From positions 1-54,317 of the IMG/VR virus record IMGVR_UViG_3300045391_001808: 54,317 nucleotides of DNA; one strand, 5' to 3'. Below are positions 9,585-53,300 of the stretch, piece after piece. Numbering within the stretch: position 1 is the stretch's first letter; each line of letters begins with the position of its first letter. The position numbers were made by a program, and so were the translations under genes. This DNA is from a virus. Under the pieces are notes generated by a model that saw only the letters and a list, made by a program, of their open reading frames with translations, did not search any database and had not been told where the DNA came from.

Positions 9585-10387
9585 TGAACATTACTGACCT
9601 TGTAGAGAAAGTTGGAAAGCGCGACCCTCTGTCCGCAGAGGAGTGGAATACTGTCGTGCGGTTCCTCAAGGCAGGCCAGCACACGAGCAGCCTGTCGCCT
9701 GCGTCAGCCGCCCAGGAGGATGCTGCACAGAGGACTGCCGAGCACTACGTGGTGGCAGTCACCGACGACGATCTCGAACCGTACTCTGCGTTCGGCGTAG
9801 TCGACGGCGAGTCAGGCGTGGGACCGACACAGTTCAAGGTAGCGAGGATCAACACGGCACCGGGCGCTCTCGTCTACACGAACTACTCAAACGCCGCAGT
9901 CGCGGGTGGCAAGGTGATGTGTCGCCCGGTAGGGACCTACTCGCCGGCCAGACTGCGAGTCACTGGGGACCCTGTGAGAGTGGGCTACCCGTGTGGTGTC
10001 AAGCCGGGCACTTACGGCATAGGCGACGGGTACTACGGCATGGTCTGCCTCGCGACCGGTAGTGATTATACTGGCGACTACGCCATGGTCATGCGTGCCT
10101 ACGAGCACACGTCGATGTTGGGCGTGGTGACGACAGCTCTTACCGCAGCAGACTACGACAGTCTCGTTCTTGGCATAGGAATGGTCAAGCTGCTCGTTGC
10201 AGACGAGAGCGGGTCGCTATCTGACATGCTGTCGCCCGAGAGCGGGTCAGATGGAAACATGAGCCTGCCGTGTTTCAACTCTGCAGAACGAGATGTCGTG
10301 GTCGACGAGCCCGTAGGTCTTACGATCGTACTTGGCGTCGGCCTGGTGGCATCGCCGTTGCGCTGTCCAGACGGGAGTGGCAGCTGA
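9584..10387 (+). CDS. minor tail protein
   Basis: 267 aa, translationally coupled on both sides. Confidence 0.6.
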   Translation: MNITDLVEKVGKRDPLSAEEWNTVVRFLKAGQHTSSLSPASAAQEDAAQRTAEHYVVAVTDDDLEPYSAFGVVDGESGVGPTQFKVARINTAPGALVYTNYSNAAVAGGKVMCRPVGTYSPARLRVTGDPVRVGYPCGVKPGTYGIGDGYYGMVCLATGSDYTGDYAMVMRAYEHTSMLGVVTTALTAADYDSLVLGIGMVKLLVADESGSLSDMLSPESGSDGNMSLPCFNSAERDVVVDEPVGLTIVLGVGLVASPLRCPDGSGS

Positions 10388-12396
10388 TGGGATTCCTACT
10401 GCAGTGCGACGGGACTAACAACCCGCGGTGTGAGTGTAACGGCGGAGGCGGTACGCCCTGCCTCATCTACGAAAACGCCACCCCGGAAATCCCCATCCAA
10501 TCCGGAGTTGGCGGCGTCCCCTCAAACACCATCATCAGCATCAGGGTGTTTACGACCGTCACTTTGGCCGACGACGAAACGGCCCGGATTAAGCTGTCGA
10601 TCGTTGACGACGACAACTACTGGTATGCCGAAGTCAAAGCCGGCCCGTCTGGCTATCTGAAGCTATTTAGCCGCATTGGTGGCGTTGAGACCGAGAGAAC
10701 AAACAGCGACGGGGTTTGCACCATCGCACGCGATGCCGGGACGTTTGGCTTTTGCGCGTCTCTTGGAATCAATGCCTCGATTGGAATGTTCACGATTTTG
10801 GCGTCGGTCACAGGTAGCGGTGCGGGCTATACGACCGAGTTTATTCAATCTGAAGCCGCGTTTACCAGTGGAGAATGGGGTGTTGAGTCTGATGGCACGG
10901 TTGCTGATTTATCGGTGCAACGCTATCTGAATAAGTGCCCGAAGTGCAGTAGCAATCGGACATTCTGCGACCGACTAAACATGATACCGCCCGACATGAA
11001 TGCGAGCGGGGCAGGGCCTTGCATCTATCCCGGCGAGGAACAGTATTCCGATTACCCTCTGATTGTTGATTTTGGCGGCGGCGGATGGACTTCGGTAGGT
11101 ACTGGAATTTCGCTATGCGAAGTCGTTGCTGGCGAAATCAAGCTAGTGACCGGCGCTATTTTCGGGATGATTTGCGGCCTTCCGTCAGCCTGCATTCTCG
11201 GATGGAATGGCGACGACAACCCGCTTTTTCCGAGAGCCTGCCTTGGCGGCCGATACTGCACGGTCATCAACGGCGACCAAAGGCAGGAGGTACTGGATAT
11301 CGAACTTACAATATCCGGCCCGAACTGCCCTTACGATCATCCGTGGGCGCTGCTCGGAATAAGGCTAAGCAACTTCGGTCACCCGGATTTGCCTTGGGTC
11401 GACGTGCATTACGAAGTTCACCTAGACCAGTGCCAGAGATGGGATTTAACGTTAGGTGCTGTGATCACGCTGACGAAAACCCACGAATCGCACAATCCAG
11501 TCAACCGGGCGTGCGACGGCGAATTGCCAGACACAATCACGTTTCGCCTATCTGATACCACAGACCCGCAGACCGAAAGCTGCCTTCCCGGCGACCCAAC
11601 GCTACCGCCAGACACCACGGTCCGGTGTGCTGAAATTCGACGATGCGGCTGCGACACAATCGACTTTATCTACCTGCTGGTAGCAGACGGCTACGTTGTC
11701 GGCGACATCATCAAAATAAGCACAACAACACCGGATACGCCGGCCGGTGCTATCAATCGCCCGCATATCGAGTGCTGGGAGATTATGAAAATCTCTGACT
11801 CGAATCACCGATGCATCTTCGATGGTGTTGACGAGAACCCGCTAGCCACTGTTCCGCGATGGGTGAACATCATCAGCGAACACGCCACCTGCGAAGAATG
11901 CCTGCCCTACTGCAACTGCTGCTCATCCGCCGGCACCGACACGACGATTGACGGTGTTGTGGTTTCCGTCGGCGATGCGACCGGCATTGACGCCGATTAT
12001 CAATACGAGTGGGACCACTACGTGAAGGGCAACACGTTCGTTCCGAACAACCACGAAGGCACGTTTGTTCCCCCGGGTTGTTCGTACGGAAACTATATCC
12101 AGAACGTGGCCGAAGATCCCGGCCGCACCATAGAGTTTTTATTCAACGTCACCAACAGCAATCCGAGCGACCCCGATGCGGCGTGTAGCTGGGAAGTGAC
12201 GATTCAGGCATCCGGCGGAGCGCGGTCAAACTGGGTGCTGACTTGGGTTGCATTCTCTCCGCCGGCCAAATCGGAAGTCTGTGGAGAGATGCCGATAACG
12301 ATGAACTTCGTGAGCGGGTCCGACGCCGTTCATTCCGACTTTCCGACGACGCTAAGCCTGTCGCCTCTTGCCGCTTGCCCAACCCCCGAAGTATGA
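10387..12396 (+). CDS. large cysteine-rich tail-end protein (function unknown)
   Basis: ATG 10387 overlaps the upstream TGA (the ORF opens earlier at 10270 with an Arg-rich junk extension). It is 669 aa with many Cys (CDGTNNPRCECNGGGGTPC...). Codon usage is visibly more A/T-ending than in the neighbours. Confidence 0.65.
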   Translation: MGFLLQCDGTNNPRCECNGGGGTPCLIYENATPEIPIQSGVGGVPSNTIISIRVFTTVTLADDETARIKLSIVDDDNYWYAEVKAGPSGYLKLFSRIGGVETERTNSDGVCTIARDAGTFGFCASLGINASIGMFTILASVTGSGAGYTTEFIQSEAAFTSGEWGVESDGTVADLSVQRYLNKCPKCSSNRTFCDRLNMIPPDMNASGAGPCIYPGEEQYSDYPLIVDFGGGGWTSVGTGISLCEVVAGEIKLVTGAIFGMICGLPSACILGWNGDDNPLFPRACLGGRYCTVINGDQRQEVLDIELTISGPNCPYDHPWALLGIRLSNFGHPDLPWVDVHYEVHLDQCQRWDLTLGAVITLTKTHESHNPVNRACDGELPDTITFRLSDTTDPQTESCLPGDPTLPPDTTVRCAEIRRCGCDTIDFIYLLVADGYVVGDIIKISTTTPDTPAGAINRPHIECWEIMKISDSNHRCIFDGVDENPLATVPRWVNIISEHATCEECLPYCNCCSSAGTDTTIDGVVVSVGDATGIDADYQYEWDHYVKGNTFVPNNHEGTFVPPGCSYGNYIQNVAEDPGRTIEFLFNVTNSNPSDPDAACSWEVTIQASGGARSNWVLTWVAFSPPAKSEVCGEMPITMNFVSGSDAVHSDFPTTLSLSPLAACPTPEV

Positions 12397-18292: not shown

Positions 18293-18367
18293 GGTGCACT
18301 CGTCTAACGGTAGGACGCTGCCCGGTACGTAGAGGCAGAAATGAGGGTTCGACTCCCTCATGCACCG
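18293..18367 (+). tRNA. tRNA-like element with non-canonical anticodon loop
   Basis: Acceptor ggtgca/tgcacc pairs 6 of 7. The D arm is gtct-AACGGTA-ggac. The T arm is gaggg-TTCGACT-ccctc. The anticodon stem ctgcc/ggcag is 5 bp but encloses 11 nt (cggtacgtaga). No CCA is encoded. Confidence 0.4.
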
Positions 18368-18409
18368 CTTTCTTGTGACGGACCCGACGACTCTCCAATC
18401 AGAGCCAAG

Positions 18410-21260: not shown

Positions 21261-21863
21261 ATGAGAGAAGTACTGATGGTAGCAGAGTTCCACGAGAAGC
21301 TCGGCATCTCTCCCAGACAGCGGATGAGGTACAAGCCGTCGCAGATGCTGCTACAGTTCTCGCACGCGATCCACACAATGGCGCACGAGCTGGAACGCCG
21401 CGTGAATGACCCGGACGCGCGCTACCTTCGCGCCCACCTCGACCTAGAGGAGACGGCAGAGTTCGTCCACGCACTCGCGTGCGGGGACGAAGTCGCGGCA
21501 CTGGACGCGATGGCTGACAAGCTGTACATACTGTGCGGCCACGCCGACGTGTTCGACTTGCCGCTGGGCGCTGCGTTCGACGAGGTCCACCGGAGCAACA
21601 TGACGAAGAAGAAGCAGCCCGCAGACCCGAGTGCTGCTCGCGTGCGGCAGAAGGGGCCCAACTACTCGCCACCCGACCTGCGACGAGTACTACAGGAGCA
21701 TCGAGACGGCAGCCGCTGCAGCTGCGACTGGGACAAGATCCGACAGCTGGTACAGCTCATGCAGCACAGCCCGGAGATGAAGGAAGACATGCTGCACTAC
21801 GTAGACGCAGCACTCAAGCACGGAAAGACTCGTATGGAGACTCTAGGATGTACGACGCAGTAG
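21261..21863 (+). CDS. MazG-like all-alpha nucleoside triphosphate pyrophosphohydrolase
   Basis: LDLEETAEFVHAL...ALDAMADKLYILCGHA...AFDEVHRSNMTK matches the MazG-like NTP-PPase pattern. Confidence 0.7.
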   Translation: MREVLMVAEFHEKLGISPRQRMRYKPSQMLLQFSHAIHTMAHELERRVNDPDARYLRAHLDLEETAEFVHALACGDEVAALDAMADKLYILCGHADVFDLPLGAAFDEVHRSNMTKKKQPADPSAARVRQKGPNYSPPDLRRVLQEHRDGSRCSCDWDKIRQLVQLMQHSPEMKEDMLHYVDAALKHGKTRMETLGCTTQ

Positions 21864-23074
21864 GAATTCACGTATTCGCGGGCGGGTTCACAATGGGCGT
21901 TAAGAAGGTCATGAACTGTGAGACCCAGCTCGAGAAGCACGGCTTCGGTATCGAGACGGCCGAGGAAGTTGCCAAGGTGCAGGTGATCAACGGCGAGTGG
22001 CCAGACGTACCAGCGCAGATGGCGTTCGGCAACCCTCGCTGCACCGGGTTCAGCACGATCACGTCGGGCTACGACGAGACGGCACACGGGCCGTGGTCGA
22101 AGCAGACGTGTGACATACACGAGCTGTGCTCGTACGCGGCGGGCAAGTACGACATCGTGATATGGGAGTCAGTGCAGCAGGCTTACACGACCGGCAAGCC
22201 GCTGCTCGACTACCTGATCTCGGAGTACTTCGCGCCGCGAAACTACCGCGTGGCTCACGTGTTCATCAACGCCGCGTCGTTCAGCAACGCGCAGCAGAGG
22301 AAGCGATACTTCTTCGTAGCGTACCGCGACGACAGGAACTTCAACATCACGCCGCCAGTGATCGACCCGTACTATGCCACACTATATGACGCCATCTGGG
22401 AGGACAGGAACAGGGAAACTCGTGAGGTGAGGTTCTCTGCCAGCGACGAGTACGACCGAGACTGCTACATCAAGCTGACCGACAACGAGAAGGCGTGCGT
22501 GCCGTACCTGCCCACGGGCTGGGGGCTCAACACGCTTGCTCGGTTCAGGTACCAGTTCCTACCCGACAAGATGAAGTACGTCTGGGACACGAGAGTGAGC
22601 GACATGCCGTTCAGCCTGCACTGCATATCGAGGACGAACTGGCTACGGCCATGCCCGACCCTGCACTCCTCGGCCACGCGCTACATCCACCCGACGCACG
22701 ACCGACCGCTGACCGTCGGAGAGCTGGCAGCAGTCATGGGATGGGACGACATACCGCGTGGCAGGATGCCGGTGCCGCAGCTGGCCAAGGGTGTGGTGCC
22801 TGCTGTCGGCGAGTGGCTGGCACAGCAGGCAGCGGACTACCTGGACGGCAAGTGGGCCGGTGACGACTGGGAATCGTCGTACGACCCACACGACTGCGAG
22901 TGGAAGGGCAGGAGCGTGAACGGCGCCCGCGAGAAGGTCTTCGACCTGACCCGCTACGTGGGCTCACAATTCGACAGGTCGCGATACGAGGTGACGGATG
23001 ATGAACTATTCGACCATAGATACGGCCTGGGCAGAGACCATTCGAAGCCTGCTCGTCGAAGCCTCCCGACCTAG
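21848..23074 (+). CDS. DNA (cytosine-5) methyltransferase-fold protein
   Basis: Motif I IHVFAGGFTMG, motif IV FGNPRCTGFS, motif VI WESV, motif VIII QQRKRYFFVAY, motif IX RPLTVGELAAVMGW and a variant motif X KGVVPAV are present. Start ATG 21848 (the ORF opens at 21533 with Arg-rich junk). Confidence 0.75.
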   Translation: MYDAVGIHVFAGGFTMGVKKVMNCETQLEKHGFGIETAEEVAKVQVINGEWPDVPAQMAFGNPRCTGFSTITSGYDETAHGPWSKQTCDIHELCSYAAGKYDIVIWESVQQAYTTGKPLLDYLISEYFAPRNYRVAHVFINAASFSNAQQRKRYFFVAYRDDRNFNITPPVIDPYYATLYDAIWEDRNRETREVRFSASDEYDRDCYIKLTDNEKACVPYLPTGWGLNTLARFRYQFLPDKMKYVWDTRVSDMPFSLHCISRTNWLRPCPTLHSSATRYIHPTHDRPLTVGELAAVMGWDDIPRGRMPVPQLAKGVVPAVGEWLAQQAADYLDGKWAGDDWESSYDPHDCEWKGRSVNGAREKVFDLTRYVGSQFDRSRYEVTDDELFDHRYGLGRDHSKPARRSLPT

Positions 23075-23984
23075 CGAGCGTGGTGACATGCGCGAGGTCG
23101 TCGGCTACTCGTTCTCGCTGATGGGAGACAGGACGTTCCTGTGCAACGAGCGGCGGGCGTTGTCGCCGACGTATGCCGCTGCAGAGACGCTGTGGTACCT
23201 CGGGCGCGGTGGGAGCGTGGAGATGATGAAGGCCTACGCGGCCCAGTACGTGAACTACACGGAGAGCGACGGCACGGTGTATGGCGCTTACGGTGCGAGA
23301 ATAGCTAGGAACTTGTACGAGACTACAGACGGTGTGGTCGAAGACGACCTCCTTGACCTCGCCGTAGAGCAGCTGCGGCACCGGCCCGACACGAGACAGT
23401 GTGTCGTCTCGCTGTGGCGGCCCGACGACATCAGCGTGGTCGCGAAGGACCGGCCCTGCACGCTGTCGTGGCAGTTCTTAAGACGGGACGGGTACCTGCA
23501 CATGGTGGTGAACATGCGGAGCAACGACGCGTGGCTCGGGTTGCCGTACGACGTGTTCGCGTTCACGTGCGTGCAGCGCCTGGTCGCTGACACCCTGAGG
23601 CTCGACGTCGGTAAGTACGTTCACAACGTCGGCAGCATGCACCTCTACGAGAAACACGTGCCACAGGCAAGACAGGCCCTGGACTACGAGCACGCTGGAA
23701 GACAGCACCTGTGGCAGATACCCAGCCGCATGGAAGAAGTGCCGCAAGCTATTGAGGCAGAGAGCAAAGTTAGGCATACAGGATGCGAGAGAGCTCTCTT
23801 CACTGGCGACATGCTGCGAGATCTATACTACTGCTGCGCCGACAAGTGGGTGAGCGGCCTGCGACAGTACTTACAATCACCCGCGCTAAGACACATGATG
23901 GAGGTTCACGATGCTCGTAATCGAGGGCGGAGACCTAGTGGGGAAGACGACGCTGGCAAAGAAGCTGGTAGCACGACTGGCTGA
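22998..23984 (+). CDS. ThyA-family pyrimidine C5 transferase, predicted dCMP-specific (hydroxymethylase or methylase)
   Basis: The catalytic Cys is in DRPCTLSWQF (codon 23457-23459). MRSNDAWLGLPYD carries Asp (23550-23552) where thymidylate synthase has Asn (LGLPFN). GSMHLYEKH is also present. Confidence 0.7.
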   Translation: MMNYSTIDTAWAETIRSLLVEASRPSERGDMREVVGYSFSLMGDRTFLCNERRALSPTYAAAETLWYLGRGGSVEMMKAYAAQYVNYTESDGTVYGAYGARIARNLYETTDGVVEDDLLDLAVEQLRHRPDTRQCVVSLWRPDDISVVAKDRPCTLSWQFLRRDGYLHMVVNMRSNDAWLGLPYDVFAFTCVQRLVADTLRLDVGKYVHNVGSMHLYEKHVPQARQALDYEHAGRQHLWQIPSRMEEVPQAIEAESKVRHTGCERALFTGDMLRDLYYCCADKWVSGLRQYLQSPALRHMMEVHDARNRGRRPSGEDDAGKEAGSTTG

Positions 23985-24507
23985 CGAGGGCTACGTCTAC
24001 AAGCACTTCTCGCGACTGCCTGACAAGTTCGACAGGTTCTGGGGCTACGTCGAGAACGCTGTGACGCGCTCGGTGCAGGACCGCTTCCACATGTCAGAAG
24101 TCATGTACAGCGAGATGCGTGGTGACGACACCATGCTGTGCCCGCAGCGGTACCGCATGGTAGACGGCCACCTGCGTACACGAGGCGCGCTCACAGTGAT
24201 CGTCACGTGTGACGAGCGACTGCTGGCGAGTCGGGCACCACACGAAGACGAGATGTACGGCCGAGACCAGATACTGGCAGTGAATAGCATGTTCGAGCGG
24301 GTCGTCCAGGAGCGAGGCCAGTTCTCGCATCACGTTCACGGGCTCTACCACATGGACTTCGACGTGGCAGTAGAGTGCGACGACAGCAAGCCGTACCCCG
24401 ACGACTACGACGTGGATCACATCATCACATCTTACAGCAGGAGACTAGCGACATGGCAGAGAGTAATGTCACAGGAACAGTACTCGCGACGATTACCAAC
24501 TGTATAA
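23911..24507 (+). CDS. P-loop (d)NMP kinase, thymidylate-kinase-like
   Basis: MLVIEGGDLVGKTTLAKKL resembles the Tmk EGxDGxGKTT P-loop. GGAGG lies upstream of ATG 23911. Confidence 0.65.
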   Translation: MLVIEGGDLVGKTTLAKKLVARLADEGYVYKHFSRLPDKFDRFWGYVENAVTRSVQDRFHMSEVMYSEMRGDDTMLCPQRYRMVDGHLRTRGALTVIVTCDERLLASRAPHEDEMYGRDQILAVNSMFERVVQERGQFSHHVHGLYHMDFDVAVECDDSKPYPDDYDVDHIITSYSRRLATWQRVMSQEQYSRRLPTV

Positions 24508-24806
24508 AGAAGCACGACCTCAAGCCAGACCACCACCAGATGTACCGACTGGTGGAGTGCCTGGAGAAGGACGGCACGTCGCGAGCGCTGAGAGCTCGTG
24601 ACACGTTACTAGCACTGATGTCTCGGTCGTTCATGCCAGCCGCGTCGTGGTTCATCGGTCCGGGCCTTCGAGATCTAGGAGTGGAGATAGATGCTGACGT
24701 TCGACAACGGCGGAAGACTGATAACTCGCGAAGACGAGCTGCCACCCGTGCCGGAAAGAATCGAGCGGCTGTACCTCGACTTCGAGACGAGAAGCGGCGA
24801 TCCTAA
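24453..24806 (+). CDS. hypothetical protein
   Basis: 117 aa from ATG 24453 (GGAG upstream). The 3' part overlaps the polymerase start by 116 nt, so the true extent is uncertain. Confidence 0.35.
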   Translation: MAESNVTGTVLATITNCIKKHDLKPDHHQMYRLVECLEKDGTSRALRARDTLLALMSRSFMPAASWFIGPGLRDLGVEIDADVRQRRKTDNSRRRAATRAGKNRAAVPRLRDEKRRS

Positions 24807-27612
24807 GCTCGACTCGCTCCACCCGTGGCACAACTGCAGGCCGTGCGGGTTCGCGGTCACGTGGGACGACGTCCCGGGCGCGTGGTACGTCCCCGTGGAC
24901 CACGACTTCGGGCCAGTCGTGCAGCGCGAGGCGGCCTACACGTGGCTCCGTGACATAATGTCTCGGAGTCACGTGTGGGTCAACCACAACGTGAAGTACG
25001 ACGCGCACGTGTACGAGCTGAACGTCGGGAGGATCCCTCCAGGCGTTCAGCTCCGGTGCACGGTCGTGCGGGCGAAGCTGGTCGACTCGGACCGACAGTT
25101 CCGTGGTGGGTACGGCCTGGACGTGTTGAGCTCGCAGTGGCTGCACGAGGACATCAGTGCCGTGGAGCAGGCGATGGCACCTTACCTCTACCGCTGCAAG
25201 GACTACGGCGTGGTGCCGTCGGACGTCATGGGTTCGTACGGCTGCCAGGACGTGATCACAAACCGTAGGCTGGATCGTTACATCGACAACGCTATGGCAT
25301 CCCAATGTTGTGAGATAGCGCTGGTAGAGCAGTCGCTGACTCGCGTGCTGCTTGACGTGGAGCAGCGTGGCATGATGGTCGACCCCACCGAGCTCAAGAT
25401 CGCCGAGCTCAGGACGATGACCCAGATGCTGCAGCTGGAGGCAGAGCTTGAGGTTCTCGTCGGCAGGTCGTTCAGGCCGCACGTCAACGAGGACTGCTAC
25501 GACGTGCTGTGCACGCAGTACGGGCTGCCCGTCATGGGGTGGACCGACAAGACAGAAGACGGCGAGGAGGGCGGCAACCCGTCGTTCGACAAGCAGGCAC
25601 TCGCGGGCTACATGGTGCACCCACTGGCCCCGAAGGACGTCGTGAGTCGGATCGTAAAGTATCGCAAGCTGTCTACGTTCAAGTCGCTGTTCGTAGACGT
25701 GCTGTCTACCGAGCACGTGGACGGCGTGATCCACACGCAGTACAACCAGCTCGTGCGCACCGGCCGGCTCAGCTGCAAGTCACCCAACATGCAGCAGCAG
25801 GACAAGTCGAGCAAGATGCTGTTCCACCCGCGACCTGGGTACAGCTTCATGTCGTGCGACTACTGCTTACCGGCTGGCACGCTGATACCGACGCCGTACG
25901 GTGACAAGCCGATAGAGATAGTTGCCGCCAACTTGATGCCAGTACTGTCTGTGACAGACAGTGGAGAGCTTAAATTCTGCGCGACCTCGAGAGGTGGAAG
26001 AGTTGGATTCGGCCAGATATTCAAGATCACTTTCACCGACGGGACTACATTCGAGTGTACGAGCGACCATCCGATGATGAGACTGGACGGCACGAGTGTT
26101 AAGTGCAAGGACTTGGTCTCAGGAGACAGGATGGCACACGTTGTTGACACGACGATAGGGAAATATACATACTGGAAACTTAAGAGCAGCATCTACAGCA
26201 AGCACAAGCTTGTAGCTGAGTGGGCGACAGGATCTAAGATAGATAGCGACCTCTACCACGTGCACCACATCGACGAGGACAAGAATAACTGGTGCGTGAG
26301 TAACCTAGAGGTAAGAGGTTACTCTGAGCACATATCAGGCCATAGTAGGCAACGATATCTGTCGCAAGATCATGTAAAGCGAGTAGAAGCACTGCGCGAA
26401 GCTCTTAAGAATCGAAGATCATACGCATATGATGAGAACCCAAACTGGCAGGGTGGTAAGATCGTGGTTGCATGTGACACGTGCGACCGACCATTCGAGA
26501 AGTGGCCTTCGCAGGATACTAAATACTGCTCGAAAGAGTGCCGTAGCGCTGGCCGATCAGCGAGTCATCAGAAGCGAAGAGTTGAAGTTACCTGTGAGAC
26601 GTGCAGTAGGACCTTCGAGACTCTGCCCGGAAGACCTCGAGTCTTCTGCTCGAGAGCTTGCTCTAACCGATCACCTGTAAAGACTGCAAAAGACGATAAG
26701 AACTATGAGGTGCTAAGCGTCGAGTACGCTCGCGACGACTGGTACTACAGCATAACTGTTCCTGAGACTGGTACTTACGTCACTACGAACGGGCTCATAA
26801 ATTCACAGAGTCAGATCGAGTTCCGGTTCATAGTCCACTATATCGACGAGCCACACGCCGTGGAGGCTTACAACCGCGACCCAGATACAGACTTTCACAC
26901 GTGGGTCGCCGAGCTCTGCAAGATCAAGAGGAAGCCGGCCAAGACTGTCAACTTCATGGTGGCCTTCGGCGGCGGCAAGAAGAAGACGATCAAGACGCTG
27001 TCGAAGAACGACGACGTGATCGGCGACATCACGCAGCAAGTCGAGAAGCTAATCGCAGAGGGCAGGGTGGACCGCGCCGACGCGAAGCTGGTGTTCGACC
27101 AGCTCTGCGAACGGAAGGCCGTTGACATGTATGAGACCTACCACGCCACGCTGCCCAACCTCAAGCGCACGTCCCGACGCGCCGCGTCAGTCTGCGAGCG
27201 GCGGGGCTACGTCTACACAATCATGGGCCGGCACCGGCACATCCCGAGGGACAAGGCGCACATAGCGTTCAACACGATCAACCAGGGCAGTGCTGCTGAC
27301 CTGATGAAGGAGCGCACCGTGGCGCTGGCCGAAGCGATCCGTGGCAGGGACATCCACATCGTCGCGAGCGTGCACGACGAGGTGCTGCTCGAGATGCCAA
27401 CTGCTGTCGCACACGATCCTCGGACGGCTCGTGACCTCGCGAACCTGATGGAGCACCCGCCGTTCGAGCTGCGAGTGCCCATCAGGTGCAGCATAGGAGT
27501 GAGCGACCACACGTGGGCGCAGGCCGGCAGCGACGACGTCAGCGGCCCTGTGTCCTACGATCCCAGCGAGTGCGGGCTGTTCGATCACGTTCCTAACACG
27601 TCGACACACTGA
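24691..27612 (+). CDS. family A DNA polymerase (3'-5' exo + pol) interrupted by an intein
   Basis: Exo I is LYLDFET. Motif A is split as SCDY / SQIEFR. Motif B is KPAKTVNFMVAFGG and motif C is VASVHDEVLLE. Confidence 0.9.
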   Translation: MLTFDNGGRLITREDELPPVPERIERLYLDFETRSGDPKLDSLHPWHNCRPCGFAVTWDDVPGAWYVPVDHDFGPVVQREAAYTWLRDIMSRSHVWVNHNVKYDAHVYELNVGRIPPGVQLRCTVVRAKLVDSDRQFRGGYGLDVLSSQWLHEDISAVEQAMAPYLYRCKDYGVVPSDVMGSYGCQDVITNRRLDRYIDNAMASQCCEIALVEQSLTRVLLDVEQRGMMVDPTELKIAELRTMTQMLQLEAELEVLVGRSFRPHVNEDCYDVLCTQYGLPVMGWTDKTEDGEEGGNPSFDKQALAGYMVHPLAPKDVVSRIVKYRKLSTFKSLFVDVLSTEHVDGVIHTQYNQLVRTGRLSCKSPNMQQQDKSSKMLFHPRPGYSFMSCDYCLPAGTLIPTPYGDKPIEIVAANLMPVLSVTDSGELKFCATSRGGRVGFGQIFKITFTDGTTFECTSDHPMMRLDGTSVKCKDLVSGDRMAHVVDTTIGKYTYWKLKSSIYSKHKLVAEWATGSKIDSDLYHVHHIDEDKNNWCVSNLEVRGYSEHISGHSRQRYLSQDHVKRVEALREALKNRRSYAYDENPNWQGGKIVVACDTCDRPFEKWPSQDTKYCSKECRSAGRSASHQKRRVEVTCETCSRTFETLPGRPRVFCSRACSNRSPVKTAKDDKNYEVLSVEYARDDWYYSITVPETGTYVTTNGLINSQSQIEFRFIVHYIDEPHAVEAYNRDPDTDFHTWVAELCKIKRKPAKTVNFMVAFGGGKKKTIKTLSKNDDVIGDITQQVEKLIAEGRVDRADAKLVFDQLCERKAVDMYETYHATLPNLKRTSRRAASVCERRGYVYTIMGRHRHIPRDKAHIAFNTINQGSAADLMKERTVALAEAIRGRDIHIVASVHDEVLLEMPTAVAHDPRTARDLANLMEHPPFELRVPIRCSIGVSDHTWAQAGSDDVSGPVSYDPSECGLFDHVPNTSTH
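25864..26802 (+). mobile_element. intein with HNH homing-endonuclease domain, inserted in PolA motif A
   Basis: Block A is CLPAGTLIPTPYG (Cys1 at 25864), block B is ECTSDHPMM, HNH is HVHHIDEDKNNWCVSNLEVRGYSEHISGH, and there are two CxxC...CSxxC repeats. Block F/G is WYYSITVPETGTYVTTNGLIN followed by Ser (Asn codon 26800-26802). The segment is visibly lower in GC. The 3' boundary is ambiguous by 6 nt (SQ|SQ). Confidence 0.8.
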
Positions 27613-27643
27613 TGTCAATAGGCATTTTGTGCCAAATAGTCAA

Positions 27644-27689
27644 ACTATCTATTTTAACACTATCTAGATTGTCTATTTTATCTATTTTA
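27644..27689. repeat. iteron-like short direct repeats in an AT-rich intergenic region
   Basis: TCTATTTTA occurs at 27648-27656, 27672-27680 and 27681-27689. ACTATCTA occurs at 27644-27651 and 27659-27666. Confidence 0.6.
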
Positions 27690-27893
27690 CCAACCTGTTC
27701 CAATGGCTCTATATCGCCTTGGTCCGTTGGACGATTCGATATACCAATAGACCCAGTTTTGGGCGAAATTTGATGCCAGATGGACACAAAAACAGCCCAG
27801 ATCGCTCTAGAATATAGACTCGCGGTATATTTCGACAAAAACTCGGGTACTTTGAAAAACTTTTAAGAAAATGAAAATATCTTAAGAAACCTG

Positions 27894-27922
27894 TTTACAT
27901 CGAACTCTACTGTCGATATATT
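27894..27922 (+). promoter_or_regulatory. sigma70-type promoter
   Basis: TTTACA (27894-27899), 17-nt spacer, TATATT (27917-27922). Confidence 0.65.
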
Positions 27923-27935
27923 CTACATAGTTGAT

Positions 27936-27953
27936 TACTACATACTACTGGAG
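27936..27953 (+). promoter_or_regulatory. conserved early leader/RBS cassette, copy 3
   Basis: TACTACATACTACTGGAG, identical to copy 1, 8 nt upstream of ATG 27962. Confidence 0.6.
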
Positions 27954-27961
27954 ACTGAAAC

Positions 27962-35294: not shown

Positions 35295-35539
35295 ATAAGA
35301 TAGTACTGACCGGAGTCGTGATGACCTTCATCACGCTGGCGGCGTTCATCATACTGGCGTTCACGATCGGATACGACGCCGGACGGCACTCGCGACACCG
35401 CGAGGTCGTAGACTACATCACCCGACAGAGCGTGCTGACACGACGACTGATACGGCTCGGCGACGAGCAGACGATGCGTGAGGTGGAGAAAGAATCCCTA
35501 ACACTGGAGAAAGACAATGGGTCAGATGGTAATTCCTAG
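35291..35539 (+). CDS. small membrane protein
   Basis: 82 aa. The N-terminal TM segment is IVLTGVVMTFITLAAFIILAFTIG. Confidence 0.55.
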   Translation: MNKIVLTGVVMTFITLAAFIILAFTIGYDAGRHSRHREVVDYITRQSVLTRRLIRLGDEQTMREVEKESLTLEKDNGSDGNS

Positions 35540-36383
35540 GACGTACCTGCTGGGCGTGACGCAGCCCGACCGCGACGAGCTGCTGCGGTACCTGCGAGAG
35601 ACTGGACAGGAAGAGTTCATGAGGCAGTTCGAGGAGGCAGAGCAGGAGGTGGGCGGGGCGCTGTGTCTCGTCAGCTTCTACGCCAAGCTGTGCTACAAGT
35701 CGCTGGTGCTCGGTAAGAACAGCAACGTCACCGCGACGCGAGACATCCTTGAGAATCTCACAGGATGTCTCGCGCAGGGGCACGGGTCCGTCTTCGAGCA
35801 CGTGACGCTGAACTTCGTGACGACGAACTGCTCGCGGGTGTTCACGCACGAGCTCGTACGACATCGCGCGGGCACGGCGTTCTCGCAGACGAGCGGGCGG
35901 TACGTAAGCATCGACTCGCTGGACTTGGTGCTGCCGCCAGAGCTGACACGCGACACGCCCTGCGAGTGGTGTCGTGGCGAGGGTACGGAAGAAGGGTGCG
36001 ACACTAGGTGTCGCGCGTGTGACGGTCTCTGCACACTCGACAAGGTGTACGAGAGGGCCAGGTCAGACATCGAGATCGTGCTGCAGAACCTGCGAATGGC
36101 GACGGTGCCCGAGCATGCAGACTTCGCGACCAAGAAGCGCCTCACGTCTGCCATACGACGGCTCGCGCCGAACGGGCAGGCCAACGAGATCGGGTGGTCT
36201 GCCAACGTGCGGGCGCTGCGACACATCATGGAGATGCGCACGTCGCCCGTCGCAGAGTGGGAGATGCGGCAAGTCTTCAACGACGTGTACGACATCGTCG
36301 CCGCACGCTGGCCACTGATGCTGCACGGCGCTGAGGTCACTCATGAGGGTGGCCTCATCGCTGTGGAGGGACTTGGAGTATGA
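35517..36383 (+). CDS. thyX: flavin-dependent thymidylate synthase
   Basis: The ThyX signature is HELVRHRAGTAFSQTSGRYV (RHR...SQxSxRY). GHGSVFEHV and ANVRALRHIMEMR are also present. Confidence 0.85.
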   Translation: MGQMVIPRTYLLGVTQPDRDELLRYLRETGQEEFMRQFEEAEQEVGGALCLVSFYAKLCYKSLVLGKNSNVTATRDILENLTGCLAQGHGSVFEHVTLNFVTTNCSRVFTHELVRHRAGTAFSQTSGRYVSIDSLDLVLPPELTRDTPCEWCRGEGTEEGCDTRCRACDGLCTLDKVYERARSDIEIVLQNLRMATVPEHADFATKKRLTSAIRRLAPNGQANEIGWSANVRALRHIMEMRTSPVAEWEMRQVFNDVYDIVAARWPLMLHGAEVTHEGGLIAVEGLGV

Positions 36384-36601
36384 GGTGGTTCGACGTCTCG
36401 CTGCCCGGCGTGGCCGGTCCGGTGGTAGGTCGCGAGCTTGCGAAGGGGATGGTCGAGCTGAGGATAGGCACGTGGGTGCGCCTCACCGTCACGAAGCGTT
36501 TCCTGCAGGACAGCGGCGCCCGGGCCACCGGGTGGCGGGACGAGCCTGGAGAGTGGCGTGGCGTTCACGCTACACTGATACGACTGCCAGAATGGGTGTG
36601 A
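36380..36601 (+). CDS. hypothetical protein
   Basis: 73 aa with an ATGA overlap with thyX. Confidence 0.45.
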   Translation: MRWFDVSLPGVAGPVVGRELAKGMVELRIGTWVRLTVTKRFLQDSGARATGWRDEPGEWRGVHATLIRLPEWV

Positions 36602-36602
36602 C

Positions 36603-36935
36603 ATGAAAGACCTAATCGAACAGGATGGCGAGTTTTACGTGGCTACTGGGGAAGTGCGAAAACCAAAGAGAGGCGAATGGTTTTCAAGCCAGCCAGATAA
36701 GTGGCTGTTGATGTACGACGTAGACGCAGAGGCGACACGCGAATACCAAGTCTACCACGAGCTCGACAAGCAGACCGTGAAGTTTGTGCTGGACTATAAG
36801 CCGGAAGGCGTGTCGTTGACATTGAGGGAGTACTTAAGAAATTCGTCAAAAGATATGACACCTTATGCACACGACCCGTATCTCAGGCAATGGGCAACCT
36901 ACATGCTCGACGCACTCGAACGATTGGAGAAGTAA
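36603..36935 (+). CDS. hypothetical protein
   Basis: 110 aa. This is the start of a lower-GC stretch of small genes. Confidence 0.6.
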   Translation: MKDLIEQDGEFYVATGEVRKPKRGEWFSSQPDKWLLMYDVDAEATREYQVYHELDKQTVKFVLDYKPEGVSLTLREYLRNSSKDMTPYAHDPYLRQWATYMLDALERLEK

Positions 36936-36939
36936 ACCG

Positions 36940-37113
36940 ATGGGACCAACATTCTTGATGACGGTTTGGTGTGGCATGAGCATTATGTCGATAAAGTGTT
37001 TTTTGAAAACGGACGCCGGCCATGCGTATGCGGAAGCGTACTGGCTTGTGCTTTCGGCGTTTGCTTTAAGCAATGCAGTTGCGTGGGCTGTCAGAATGAG
37101 CAAGGAGAAGTAA
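36940..37113 (+). CDS. small membrane protein
   Basis: 57 aa (MGPTFLMTVWCGMSIM...LVLSAFALSNAVAWAV). The start lies within the repeated junction GGAGAAGTAAACCGATGG. Confidence 0.45.
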   Translation: MGPTFLMTVWCGMSIMSIKCFLKTDAGHAYAEAYWLVLSAFALSNAVAWAVRMSKEK

Positions 37114-37117
37114 ACCG

Positions 37118-37234
37118 ATGGACAAAACATATCGCGTGAAGCTGCTGGATTTTGTGAAGCTTGCTGACGGCCACTGGGTGGCACAAACTGCCTTGGTCCG
37201 ATACGGATATTTGCGTTTCCCGACCAATTGGTAA
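37118..37234 (+). CDS. very small hypothetical protein
   Basis: 38 aa (MDKTYRVKLLDFVKLADGHW...), below the ORF-track cutoff. It starts in the second copy of the junction repeat, which supplies GGAG. Confidence 0.35.
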   Translation: MDKTYRVKLLDFVKLADGHWVAQTALVRYGYLRFPTNW

Positions 37235-37267
37235 TGCTCGTAATGAATTAACGAGATTGGAGAGCGT

Positions 37268-37438
37268 ATGAAAGTTACTGTGACGTGGCTGGACGGCAGC
37301 AAGCAGAGCTTCCTGGCTGCCGACGAGTACGACGAGGACCCGGTGCACAACCGGGCCACCTTCTACCTCGCCGAGAGTGGGAAGCCTGTCGTCGAGGTGA
37401 ATCTCGAGGCCGTGAGGTTTATCTACTTCGAGTATTGA
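37268..37438 (+). CDS. small hypothetical protein
   Basis: 56 aa (MKVTVTWLDGSKQSFLAADEYDEDPVHNRATFYLAESGKPVVEVNLEAVRFIYFEY). GGAGAG lies upstream. The stop overlaps the -35 box of the next promoter. Confidence 0.45.
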   Translation: MKVTVTWLDGSKQSFLAADEYDEDPVHNRATFYLAESGKPVVEVNLEAVRFIYFEY

Positions 37439-37463
37439 CACCGGGAACTCTGCAGGTTATAAT
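37435..37463 (+). promoter_or_regulatory. consensus sigma70 promoter
   Basis: TTGACA (37435-37440), 17-nt spacer, TATAAT (37458-37463). Confidence 0.8.
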
Positions 37464-37753
37464 AGGTGCATGGAAATGCAAGCGATATCAGGATGTGTTG
37501 CACAAGTGTACCTGGTCGCGGAGAAGTTAAAAAATTACACGATGCAAATGATATATGGTGACAGTTCTATATACTACTACTACTACTACTACTACTACAA
37601 AGGTCTTTTTACCTATACAGTTCTCTTCAGAGACTGTTTGAATTGAATTCATATCGATTTCATTTGCATAGTGTCGAATTTTGACTTTTGGGCGGCTCGG
37701 TACACTTGAGCTGCACTTGTGAGTTTCGCTTGCATCATTAGGAGATCCGTAGA
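37464..37753 (+). ncRNA. long structured 5' leader / candidate regulatory RNA upstream of the Zn-ribbon-sigma operon
   Basis: AT-rich, with no ORF carrying an RBS. There are three nested inverted repeats: 37476-37485/37726-37735 (10 bp), 37501-37508/37714-37721 (8 bp) and 37542-37551/37660-37669 (10 bp). They enclose (TAC)9. Confidence 0.5.
37572..37598. repeat. (TAC)9 microsatellite
   Basis: Nine perfect tandem TAC units lie in the non-coding leader. The same TAC-based unit builds the early leader cassette. Confidence 0.95.
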
Positions 37754-37897
37754 ATGAAGAAAGAACTACCAGAAGACAGAAGATGCCCTGTCTGCAACAG
37801 GAAGATAAGCTCTCGCAGTAGGTGGGCAGTGAAGCGGCCTATCCCAGTCTGTCGTAGGTGCGCGAGGTCTGGAGCAGGGGAGGCTGTCGTCCGATGA
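37754..37897 (+). CDS. small zinc-ribbon protein
   Basis: 47 aa (MKKELPEDRRCPVCNRKISSRSRWAVKRPIPVCRRCARS...). GGAG lies 9 nt upstream. It is below the ORF-track cutoff. Confidence 0.55.
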   Translation: MKKELPEDRRCPVCNRKISSRSRWAVKRPIPVCRRCARSGAGEAVVR

Positions 37898-38355
37898 CGC
37901 GAAAATATGATGCGACGAAGAGGCGCGAGGACGCGGCGATCCGAAAGGCGCGGCAGGCGATGGAGTTCCTCGAGCGGATGGAGCGCCGCGAGCGGGTGAG
38001 AGCTCGCAGGAGGCCACGGCCCGAGGTGCCCGAGGACTACAGGTGCCCGAGGTGCGGGAAGACCCGTCTGCGACGCAGGCAGTGGCGGCTGGCCGAGGAC
38101 GGTAGCACCGTGTGCGTGACCTGCAGCAGGCAGCCGAGACCGCTGCCGCCAGGATGTGTCTGCCCGAGGTGCCAGAGGAGACTGCCGCGGCGTGAGCGGT
38201 GGGACATGCGCAGCGAGCCGCTCGTGTGCAGGCGCTGCTCGGCCGAGAGGAAGGAAGCTATGGAGGTACTCAGTGATGTCAGGACTTCAGTGGCTGGAGG
38301 AGAATCCCAGAGCAGTCCGATGGCTGTTGAGGAAGTACCCGAGCCACATGCATGA
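37894..38355 (+). CDS. double zinc-ribbon protein, Arg-rich
   Basis: ATGA overlap at 37894. It has two more copies of the CPxC...RW...VCxxC module (YRCPRCGKTRLRRRQWRL...VCVTC and CVCPRCQRRLPRRERWDM...VCRRC). Confidence 0.6.
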   Translation: MTRKYDATKRREDAAIRKARQAMEFLERMERRERVRARRRPRPEVPEDYRCPRCGKTRLRRRQWRLAEDGSTVCVTCSRQPRPLPPGCVCPRCQRRLPRRERWDMRSEPLVCRRCSAERKEAMEVLSDVRTSVAGGESQSSPMAVEEVPEPHA

Positions 38356-49903: not shown

Positions 49904-50396
49904 GTTCTGGGTAGCCATTGGATGCTTCGCACTCACCGGCCTGTTCGCAGGAGTGCTGTGGGTGTACGCCTCGCGCCTTGCTGAGGCCGATATACGAATT
50001 CACCAGATCCTGGACAACACTCCGAACTCGCTCATCATCTGTAATAAGAAGAACTCGGTAGTGTACATGAACCCACAGGCTACGCGCCTGACAGGGTACA
50101 CACTTGCCGACCTGCAATCTGGCGGGCTCGAGCTCATCGTACCGGATGAGTGGGCTGACGCACACCGCGAGGGCATCGACTCGGTCGCCGGTAAGTACGA
50201 CAGGAACCACTACCAGACGCCTCACAGACACCTGTCAAAGATAATGGCAGTCAAGTGCCGGGACGGAAAGCTCGTCAGAGCGTCGATCACCGTCGTGTCT
50301 ATCGTCATGGCGGACGGACTCGAGTTCTTTGCCTGGATCACACCACTGCCCAAGGAAGACCTGACCGGAGACCTCCCACCTCGGAAGTTCAAATGA
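49890..50396 (+). CDS. membrane-anchored PAS domain protein
   Basis: The N-terminal TM segment is FWVAIGCFALTGLFAGVLWVY. A PAS-like core follows: ILDNTPNSLIICNKKNSVVYMNPQATRLTGYTLADLQ...VKCRDGKLVRASITVVSI. Confidence 0.65.
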   Translation: MQRTRFWVAIGCFALTGLFAGVLWVYASRLAEADIRIHQILDNTPNSLIICNKKNSVVYMNPQATRLTGYTLADLQSGGLELIVPDEWADAHREGIDSVAGKYDRNHYQTPHRHLSKIMAVKCRDGKLVRASITVVSIVMADGLEFFAWITPLPKEDLTGDLPPRKFK

Positions 50397-53300
50397 AGAA
50401 GCTAGCTCTCCTGCTCATGTTCGTATGCCAGGTCGCACGCGGGCAGGGCAACCCTCGGAACCTGACTGTCACCGAGGCGCTACGACTGCCGTCGATCCCG
50501 TCGCTGACCCTGCAGACGCAAGCAGACGGGCGCGTCGTGGGCGTGTCGCAGTCGGGGTTCCTCGACCAGATCGGTAACGCCCAGGGCAGCATCATATACC
50601 GAAGCGCCACGGGCTGGGTATCGCTGTCGCCCGGAACGAACGGACAGTACCTCAAGACACAGGGCGCGTCTGCCAATCCCGTGTGGGCTACAGTCTCTGG
50701 AGGTAGCGGGAGCGGCGACCTCCTGTCGACGAACAACCTGTCTGACCTGACGAACTTCACCACAGCACGCAGCAACTTAGGCCTCGCGATCGGCACCAAC
50801 GTGCAGGCCCACGACAACGACCTCGACACGTGGGCGACGCTCACACCGTCGTCGTTCTTCCAGACGCTGGTCGACGACGCGAACGCTGCGGCCGCCCGTA
50901 CGACGCTTGGCCTCGTGATCGGCACTGATGTGCTGGCACCGAATGGCAGCGGCTCGTCGCTCACCGCGCTCAACGCGAGCAACTTGAGTAGCGGCTCAGT
51001 CCCTAACGCCAGACTCGACAGTGACCTACAGATATACGCTGGGATCACTCCCTCGGCGAACGTACAGAGCCTGCTGGGTGCGGCAGACTATTCCGCCATG
51101 CGAACTCTACTGTCACTGGTTGCTGGAACTGACGTACAGGGCTACGACCCCGACTTACAGTCGTGGAAGGACGTAACCCGTGCGACTGGCTTCGATACTT
51201 TCACAGCAGCGCCGAGCAGTGCCAACGCCGCTTCGATGCTCACTGACGAGATCGGTAGCGGGGGTAGTGCTAAGCTGCTGTTCGGAGACCAGGCGGTAAG
51301 CGTGGCGTCGAACGTGACGCACGGGAACATTACCGCTAGCGGTAAAGTAGTTCTATCACCTGCGACGAGTGATGCCGATAAGACGCTGTTGAGCTTTACG
51401 CCCGAAGCTGCAACCGCTTCTCAGTTCGGCATGCGCACGTGGAAGGCTCATTTCGACGACGGGCAGCCGGACGACAACATTGTCATTATGGGCTGGAATC
51501 GTGGCCCTGGTGGTGGCGATCAGCGAATCAAGACAGATCGTGGCGCAATCTGGATGCAATTCGAGGATTTTGCTTCACTGACTGACCCAGACACATTGAT
51601 CACGTCACATGTAAACGAGTGGCACGTCGACTGGATGGCTATCGATGGGTCTGAACGCCGGCCATATTTTGCAACTGGTAATGAAGATACTGGAGCGCTA
51701 ACGGTCGTTTCACAATCATCAGAGTATCAATTTTTGAATTTCACTGGCCTGAGTGATACGCCAACTCTGATCTGCAAGGTTGAGGCCGGAGGATTTAAGG
51801 TGTACGGCTCGGCAACTGCCACGCTTACGTGTGCCGGAACGCAGAACCAGAACCTAATCACTTCTCTAAATACCACTGACGGTTCGAATCTCTACCTGTC
51901 CAACGCCGACGCGCGTGCTGCTGTCTACAACAGCGGCAATAAGCCACTCTGGCTTTCGTGTAATGACGGCAGTGGTGCTACGTTCCAGCTTAGCAGCGGG
52001 ACTAACAAAGACGTTGAGATTGCGTCGACTGGTGGCTACTGCATCGGAGGAACTAGCACTGATGGAACATGGCGGCCACTGCGGTCTAGCAATGACCTAG
52101 TCTTCCAGCGGCGCGAGTCGGGGAGCTACGTCACGAAAGCCACTATCACGAGCAGCGGCAATGTGACGGTAGCTGACCAAGCTTATGGAAGCGGCTGGAA
52201 TGGTGACCCCAGCGTACCGACTAAGAACGCAGTCTACGATAAGATCGAATCGCTCAGCATTGGGGGCTTCGACTCTACTGCTGTCGTCGGCTCAAAAACC
52301 TGGGGTGACGGGTCGACGGACACTATCGTCTGGACGTTCAATCGTGCGACCGGCACAGACCCGACCATCACGTTCAACAGTGGCTCGGTAGGCTTCCAGG
52401 CGATCACACTCAGCAGTGCGCTGGCCGTGTCGAGTGGCGGCACTGGGATCACATCGTTCGGCACTGGCGTGGCTGGAGCACTCGGGCAAGCAGTCACAGG
52501 CAGCAACTCGATCGTGCTGTCGACCTCTCCCACGATCACAACTCCTCGCACGCTGGGCCAGGTGACTCTTACTGCTTCTGGCGGCGGCTCGTCAGAAGGA
52601 ATGACGATACAGCACAGTTTGAACGAGGTAGCGCTCGCAGGCTACCAGGGGACGGAGGTGCTGTCGATCAGCGGCTTCGACGGTGTCAGCTTCGGTGGGA
52701 TGAACTTAAGCGACGCGAACGATCTCAGTCTGGCCGGCGGGCTGACAGCCGCGTCCGTGGGTTCTGACGATATCACGTCTATCGACATCGAGGCCACAGG
52801 ACAGCTCAAGGGCGGCGACGGCGTGTACTTGCTCGACGCTGCTACTGCGAACTACCTACTGCTCAAGTCGTCAGAATCGCTGGGAGCAGCTCGCACTCTG
52901 GACTTCAAAGTGAACGGTGCGAACAGGACTATCAACCTGAGCGGTAACCTGATCGTCACTGGCTCGGGCACGCTCAACATCACCAGCGGTAAGACGCTGA
53001 ACGTTAGCAACACGCTCACCTTCACGGGCACAGACTCATCATCGGTGGCGTTTGGGGCGGGCGGGACGGTTGCCTATACAAATGTAGCCTCGCTGTCATC
53101 GCTCACGACTGTAGGCACGCTAGCCGCTGGAAATGCTACTGCAATCGTCGACGCAGCTAGTACTTCCGCAGCAGGGAAAGCAGAGATTGCCACAAGCGCC
53201 GAAACTACTACTGGCAGCGACACCGGCCGAGTTATCAGCCCCGATAGTCTGCGCGGGAGTGATTACGGTAAGCGAGTTGCCGCAGCCTATATCAGCGGCA

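Follow-up and report, generated by a model that had tools for sequence, protein, structure and literature searches.

A predicted HNH intein ending in glutamine inside motif A of a phage family A DNA polymerase

The IMG/VR virus record IMGVR_UViG_3300045391_001808, all 54,317 nucleotides of which were analysed and are termed the window throughout, is a tailed-phage contig that harbors genes for a MuF-like protein, a major capsid protein, a tape measure protein, a terminase and a portal protein, together with those for a SNF2 helicase, a primase-helicase, a C5 methyltransferase, a dNMP kinase, a ligase and a thymidylate-synthase-like protein. The open reading frame (ORF) at 24691..27612 on the + strand encodes a 973-aa family A DNA polymerase, in which the exonuclease motif DFET, motif A (DY/SQIEFR, where the slash, here and below, marks an insertion or splice point), motif B (KPAKTVNF) and motif C (VHDE) are present. 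A long segment, which is regarded here as a putative intein and constitutes the subject of this report, is inserted in frame between the Asp-Tyr and the Ser-Gln-Ile-Glu-Phe-Arg of motif A, and the protein reads ...GYSFMSCDY/CLPAGT...TTNGLINSQ/SQIEFRFIVHY across the two junctions.

The N-extein (24691..25863, +) comprises the 3'-5' exonuclease domain and the N-terminal part of the polymerase domain, is recognized by Pfam DNA_pol_A and DNA_pol_A_exo1 and by NCBIfam PolA, and ends in ...FMSCD390-Y391, Asp390 being the catalytic Asp of motif A. The predicted intein (25864..26808, +; 315 aa, about 35.6 kDa) extends from Cys1 (TGC, 25864-25866) to Gln315 (CAG, 26806-26808); the stretch from CLPAGT to GLIN covers 313 aa (25864-26802), and the next SQ brings it to 315 aa (25864-26808). 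Its splicing domain of the HINT type is divided into an N-terminal part (25864..26157, +), which contains block A (CLPAGT) and block B (T66-S-D-H69, 26059-26070), and a C-terminal part (26701..26808, +; NYEVLSVEYARDDWYYSITVPETGTYVTTNGLINSQ), which contains blocks F and G. Between these two parts and on the same strand lie an HNH nuclease region (26191..26433), with a beta-beta-alpha core at 26254-26364 (YHVHHIDEDKNNWCVSNLEVRGYSEHISGH) followed by two helices, and two zinc modules of the pattern CxxC-x14-CSxxC, the first of the YacG/FCS type at 26473..26541 (CDTCDRPFEKWPSQDTKYCSKEC) and the second at 26593..26661 (CETCSRTFETLPGRPRVFCSRAC). The C-extein (26809..27612, +) begins with Ser+1 (AGT, 26809-26811) and carries the rest of motif A (SQIEFR) and motifs B and C down to the stop codon.

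The match of Pfam DNA_pol_A (7e-41, 140.8 bits, above the cut-off of 34.3) is split into separate stretches, between which the matches to Intein_splicing and HNH_3 fall, and the same picture was obtained with NCBIfam, where PolA models were accompanied by weak matches to intein N- and C-terminal models. A profile built from intein-less homologues breaks at its position 388-390 on the window protein. The insert contains 50.5% GC versus 62% in both flanks, and its GC content at third codon positions (GC3) is 0.565 versus 0.84-0.86; it is one of three low-GC islands in the window, the mean of which is 60% GC.

Relatives of the element were sought by an exhaustive profile search of 1.84 billion representative proteins, which returned 9,758 matches at E <= 1e-3 and 1,350 at E <= 1e-10. 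A word-indexed protein search with the intein alone retrieved only two fragments, and the family was seen only by the exhaustive search. About 155 of the matches were examined, of which 70 were assigned to the family A polymerases with a profile derived from the exteins and 57 carry an intein at the site D-x/C...[NQ]/[SC]Q.E.R; HNH inteins at the motif A site are thus common in metagenomic family A polymerases. These same-site inteins, derived from metagenomes and uncultured-virus records, share with the window Cys1, the TxxH of block B, the HNH core and a Ser (50 of 57) or Cys (7 of 57) at +1, and a zinc module is usual among them. They also resemble it in usually lacking the penultimate His, which was found in only nine of the 57, while they differ in the terminal residue, which is Asn in 53 and Gln, as in the window, in four. 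Further insertion points were observed in other family A polymerases at DxSQ/[CS]ELR, EFRLI/CHY and EFRIAA/CHW (P0143, P0156, P0236, P0098, P0249 and P0233), and motif A of this polymerase family emerges as an insertion hot spot, with at least four points within 12 residues occupied by related HNH inteins.

The splicing domain was characterized by modelling and by comparison. An AlphaFold model of the intein, built from an alignment of eight sequences, reached a mean predicted local distance difference test score (pLDDT) of 82, which rose above 90 over residues 1-90 and 280-315 and over both parts of the HINT domain. When the PDB was searched with this model, the top 30 matches were all HINT domains, 29 of them inteins; the best were Mtu RecA (3ifj, target template-modelling score 0.76) and Npu DnaE (4kl5, 0.77), and Ssp DnaE, Ssp DnaB and the Tli and Pho VMA inteins also stood among the top matches. 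The profile of the eight inserts found the DnaE inteins closest among solved structures (4e-6), the N-terminal part aligning to DnaE inteins and blocks F and G to those of Npu DnaE and Pho RadA. Pfam Intein_splicing (PF14890) matched the window at 6e-7 (29.8 bits) and all eight relatives at E <= 0.01, the best at 1.4e-9. In the 55 motif A inteins compared, Cys1 and His69 are invariant, and position 66, the first residue of TxxH, is always Thr or Ser.

As for the nuclease, PHROG 15471 (HNH endonuclease) matches residues 110-235 (1e-19), PHROG 1271 matches residues 164-278 (2.6e-12) and PHROG 14913 matches the nuclease region (8e-8), while Pfam HNH_3 matches the window at 8e-5 (22.6 bits) and seven of the eight relatives, the best at 2.8e-7. 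All 55 inteins compared have His135 and Asn147, and 53 of them carry His or Asn at position 156. In the model, strands 131-135 and 148-152 and helix 153-167 form a strand-strand-helix unit that holds these residues, so that the catalytic His, the conserved Asn and the metal-binding His or Asn of a beta-beta-alpha metal motif are all found in place. The cysteines of zinc module 1 are conserved in about 45 of the 55 relatives, in which one to three such modules occur. The modules, presumed to be DNA-binding units, bear only a weak likeness to YacG/FCS zinc fingers, the structural match to YacG being weak as well. In two other proteins, P0228 (1662 aa) and P0202 (721 aa), the zinc-module region is matched 21 and 9 times in tandem, respectively, which indicates that the module also occurs as a long repeat array outside inteins.

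Taken together, these data argue, with a rough probability of 0.85, that the phage polymerase gene is interrupted inside motif A by a class 1 intein in which an HNH homing endonuclease is nested, a reading that rests on sequence comparison and modelling. The first-pass annotation, made from the letters alone, had already proposed an HNH-type intein splitting motif A at 25864-26808, AT-richer than its host gene and equipped with blocks A (CLPAGT), B (TSDH) and F/G, an HNH nuclease and two CxxC...CSxxC zinc modules. Sequence, profile, fold and family comparison bore out the main claim, the pattern is not fortuitous, and the coordinates given coincide with those of the 315-aa segment.

Several observations weigh against this reading. 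The window falls below the curated cut-offs of PF14890 (29.8 against 35.8), TIGR01445 (20.3 against 24.5) and TIGR01443 (14.0 against 15.6), and the HNH_3 score of 22.6 is below the gathering score of 24.8. The nuclease part modelled alone reached a pLDDT of 70, and its top PDB match, I-HmuI (1u3e), was not significant (E = 0.29), for which reason the HNH assignment rests on the sequence profiles. Helper residues are absent: the penultimate His (position G:6), which is common but not obligatory in inteins, is replaced by Ser314, the Asp of F:4 by Ser296 and the His of F:13 by Gly303. Together with the terminal Gln, these absences could mean slow or impaired splicing, and splicing itself, Gln cyclisation, nuclease activity and DNA cleavage are functions that we infer from the features described above.

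The same observations lend themselves to the alternative that the intein is decaying or splices poorly, in which case most of the polymerase would stay in the form of an inactive precursor, and a polymerase of the host or another one would have to serve the phage. This alternative is considered improbable. It draws on the non-canonical terminal Gln, the three missing helper residues, the profile scores below the Pfam gathering scores and the slow splicing that a terminal Gln causes in the PolII inteins of Pyrococcus abyssi (Pab) and Methanoculleus marisnigri (Mma) (PMC4031507). However, the reading frame is intact over all 973 codons, and relatives that are only 36-67% identical retain Cys1 and TxxH, the residues of the HNH motif, an Asn or Gln at the end and Ser+1; such retention of splicing and HNH residues across divergent relatives indicates selection on both activities. 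The penultimate His is absent in 48 of the 57 same-site inteins, and its absence is therefore normal for the family, while the RNR intein of Chilo iridescent virus (CIV) splices better with its native Gln than with Asn (PMC4031507).

The exact end of the intein had been left with two options by the first-pass annotation, either Asn313, which would yield a polymerase reading DYSQSQIEF, or an intein ending in ...NSQ with a C-terminal Gln, which would restore DYSQIEF. The comparison with intein-less homologues that it had advised settled the boundary in favor of the second option. A search of 5.8 billion proteins for polymerase homologues yielded about 110 polymerases of 610-710 aa that lack the insert and several that carry it at the same place. 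The intein-less homologues (more than 100) read D-x-[SA]Q[IV]E[FY]R, bar a few single substitutions, and in none of them are two extra residues present between D-x and SQIEFR. At the junction, the relatives read GLINLN/SQIEF or GLVNLN/SQ[IV]E[FY] (P0002, P0005, P0009, P0039 and P0122/L016), GLINKN/SQIEF (P0121), GLVNFN/SQIEF (L006), GLINSN/SQIEF (L014/L015), GLVNKQ/SQ[IV]EF (P0003 and P0004/L013) and GLVNHQ/SQVEF (P0006). The residue after the Asn of GL[VI]N is accordingly Leu, Lys, His or Phe in most same-site relatives; an end at that Asn would leave one of these non-nucleophilic residues at +1, which implies that the intein runs two residues further.

Since a profile alignment in local mode dropped the C-terminal blocks of most sequences, the same-site inteins were compared from their ends instead, which revealed Gly at -6 in 55 of 55, the F:13 His at -13 in 43 of 55, and Asn (51 of 55) or Gln (4 of 55) as the last residue. 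Independently of this, the profile of eight inteins matches the next-to-last residue of Npu DnaE (...NGFIAS-N), a Ser, to its own position 314, and position 315 consequently corresponds to the terminal Asn of that intein. The intein is thus assigned 315 residues, from Cys1 to Gln315, with Ser314 as the penultimate residue and Ser+1 behind it, which represents the rare Gln variant of the rule that the last residue of an intein is Asn (in rare cases Gln or Asp) and the next one Cys, Ser or Thr. The predicted products of splicing are a 658-aa, 74.8-kDa polymerase with an exact DYSQIEFR and a 35.6-kDa intein. An end at Asn313, with the next Ser as +1 and a two-residue insertion in the polymerase, is very unlikely in the light of these comparisons, even though Asn313 is invariant in the subgroup of inteins to which the window belongs and a Ser does come after it in the window. 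Two oddities pointed out by the first-pass annotation also disappear with this assignment. The penultimate residue is not Ile but Ser, as in Npu DnaE, and the doubled SQ at the junction turns out to be a coincidence; a target-site duplication was rejected as its source, given that the codons differ (TCA CAG/AGT CAG) and that relatives have LN, KN, KQ or HQ there.

Among the 57 same-site inteins, the Gln terminus is confined to the window and three close relatives (P0003, P0004 and P0006). The subgroup of the window is further marked at position -3, which is invariably Asn in it but Ser or Thr in the other inteins, and at F:13, where Gly or other residues stand in place of His. What is unusual about the window is solely its terminal Gln, together with the loss of helper residues that its subgroup shows, G:6 and F:4 both being Ser and F:13 being Gly. 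The nearest neighbor of all four Gln-ending inteins ends in Asn: the window (SQ) is 59% identical to P0002 (LN), P0004 (KQ) is 67% identical to L014 (SN), P0003 (KQ) is 56% identical to P0009 (LN), and P0006 (HQ) is 56% identical to P0002 (LN). In the neighbor-joining tree of the inteins, which is star-like, the Gln-ending members form no supported clade (support 0.01). Comparison of the codons of the window (...ATA AAT TCA CAG) with those of L014 (...ATA AAT TCA AAT) shows that the last codon alone differs, and a change from AAY to CAR takes two substitutions, via Lys or His. Either the Asn-Gln change occurred more than once, or the tree is unresolved. The alternation of Asn and Gln in close relatives, the lack of His at G:6 and F:13 and the Asn at -3 that is invariant in this subgroup only would also be compatible with the subgroup using or tolerating a different chemistry at C-terminal cleavage, a proposal that we hold to be a long shot. 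Slow or conditional splicing of the Gln form, if it occurs, could time the activation of the polymerase in the course of an infection. The natural Asn/Gln pairs at the cyclising position of inteins that are alike in other respects provide a ready comparison for Gln-terminated splicing, and protein engineering might draw slow or tunable inteins from the subgroup.

On the basis of these residues, a mechanism may be proposed for the class 1 intein. Situated between Tyr391 and Ser707 of the precursor, the intein would keep the 110-kDa protein unable to polymerise until it removes itself. Splicing would begin with an N-S acyl shift at Cys1, assisted by Thr66 and His69 of block B, and the hydroxyl of Ser+1 would then attack the thioester to give a branched ester. 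Subsequently, Gln315 would cyclise in place of the usual Asn and thereby release the intein, and an O-N shift would finally remake the peptide bond, resulting in the mature polymerase and the free intein. The HNH domain and the zinc modules would recognize polymerase alleles without the intein in co-infecting phages and cleave them close to the codons of motif A, where the target across the insertion point is predicted to read ...TGCGACTAC/AGTCAGATCGAG... (also written as ...TTCATGTCGTGCGACTAC/AGTCAGATCGAGTTCCGGTTC...), and repair from the intein-bearing copy would then spread the element by homing.

The distribution of the element is patchy. In the neighbor-joining tree of the exteins, eight polymerases with a motif A intein are scattered, each of them standing beside an intein-less neighbor. 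The GC3 of the intein is lower than that of the host gene in every host compared, namely 0.565 against about 0.85 in the window, 0.44 against about 0.89 in L004, 0.42 against about 0.81 in L008, 0.42 against about 0.55 in L005, 0.38 against about 0.43 in L003 and 0.24 against about 0.30 in L006. The lower GC of the intein and the scattered distribution fit homing and movement between phages of very different base composition, as far as can be judged from sequence. That the segment is instead a conserved non-intein domain, such as a DNA-binding or nuclease accessory domain working in the full-length protein, is hardly credible, since nothing but the continuous reading frame speaks for it, whereas by far the most close homologues, the nearest tree neighbors among them, lack the segment, and it possesses a HINT fold and splice-junction residues, parts the catalytic Asp of motif A from the remainder of the motif and has a base composition foreign to the host gene. 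A group I intron was likewise set aside in view of the uninterrupted reading frame and the HINT fold of the insert.

Within deposited sequences, the 12 kb around the gene gave no match to known phages by megablast, and the best relative among deposited phages at the protein level, only 37.7% identical, lacks an intein. BFVD, a library of viral structures, yields 'DNA polymerase' entries of uncultured phages as its best matches. The best NCBIfam model for the polymerase is NF038380 (DpoZ, the polymerase that incorporates aminoadenine), although its 194 bits fall short of the required 500; among the ORFs scanned, which were a part of those in the window, no adenylosuccinate-synthetase-like match that would correspond to PurZ was seen, and the assignment as a Z-genome polymerase was rejected.

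Inteins comparable in one respect or another are on record. Bacterial DNA polymerase I has been named among the intein-bearing repair and replication proteins (Novikova et al. 2016, PMC4760082); the host protein family is shared with the window, and the main text of that source gives neither the insertion site nor the nuclease type. That inteins can carry HNH nucleases has been known since 1997 (Dalgaard et al., as cited in PMC5050341). Within the limited literature covered, no specific description of an intein at motif A of a family A polymerase was found. Inteins that end in Gln comprise those of Pab and Mma PolII, which splice slowly, and that of CIV RNR, which splices efficiently, and inteins without the penultimate His are also known (PMC4031507). 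The terminal Gln of these three inteins, shared with the window, is likewise expected to cyclise at the step of release. They nevertheless reside in other host proteins and at other sites, with no demonstrated homology to the family of the window, and, unlike in them, Asn and Gln alternate among the motif A relatives at one site. No solved HINT domains are closer by profile than those of the cyanobacterial DnaE inteins (Npu and Ssp; 2keq, 4kl5 and 1zd7; 4e-6 to 6e-6), which also rank with the best by fold. They share with the window the class 1 assignment, Cys1 and a penultimate Ser or Ala in place of His, but they are naturally split, lack a nuclease, end in Asn before a +1 Cys and are hosted by the PolIII alpha subunit.

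The same HNH plus zinc-module architecture is found at different insertion sites in the terminase inteins of Lactobacillus phage CL2 (27% identical over 274 aa) and Tetrasphaera phage TJE1. The intein of Rhodobacter phage RcKickapoo has this architecture as well and also resides in a family A polymerase (27% identical over residues 62-311), while it differs in lying upstream of motif A (TGRSA/CFVAGT...CVHN/SDNPNGQNFP) and in its canonical His-Asn end. This HNH intein (OP009274.1, gene 74; L002 1171-4914) is not annotated as such in the 1,247-aa 'DNA polymerase' that contains it. Free-standing phage HNH homing endonucleases (PHROG 15471 and 1271) are alike in the HNH core, the helices and the zinc module, whereas the nuclease of the window is nested in a HINT domain and does not significantly match I-HmuI, their structural prototype. 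Gln-ending inteins and DNA polymerase I inteins are already documented, and the current understanding of inteins is unchanged. The family to which the element belongs abounds in the polymerases of environmental phages; as a mobile intein the element is ordinary, and the Gln variant is rare but has precedent. For annotation, the gene is best described as an intein-bearing polymerase with a predicted mature product of 658 aa, and residues 392-706 need to be removed before polymerase phylogenies or motif-based typing are attempted.

Some minor observations were made in the rest of the window. Near the polymerase gene, a C5 cytosine methyltransferase, a dNMP-kinase-like protein and a thymidylate-synthase-like protein are encoded at 21533-23074, 23911-24507 and 35517-36383, respectively, and a pyrimidine hydroxymethylase and a dCMP deaminase are annotated nearby in the closest deposited phage, MW202657; DNA base modification in the phage of the window is possible. 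Directly downstream of the polymerase gene, an AT-rich non-coding gap (27613-27960; GC about 0.36-0.42 versus 0.60 for the window) contains repeated CTATCTATTTTA / TCTATTTTA words at about 27640-27695, and could be an origin or a promoter cluster. The ORFs of a second low-GC island (36600-37800; 0.46-0.50) are all short and of low GC3, and a (TAC)8 microsatellite lies in it at about 37574-37598. Two large ORFs at 10270-12396 (708 aa) and 50255-53656 (1,133 aa), with no Pfam or PHROG match and a GC3 of 0.63-0.64 that is below the rest of the genome, may encode tail fibre or host-range proteins. Two overlapping ORFs at 37754-38355 contain zinc-ribbon units of the form CPxC...W...CxxC, one in 37754-37897 and two in 37858-38355, and were assigned to no family. 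Lastly, the start codon listed for the 972-aa primase-helicase ORF (18341) falls within a tRNA-Thr (anticodon GGT, 18293-18368), which implies that the true start of this ORF may be further downstream.

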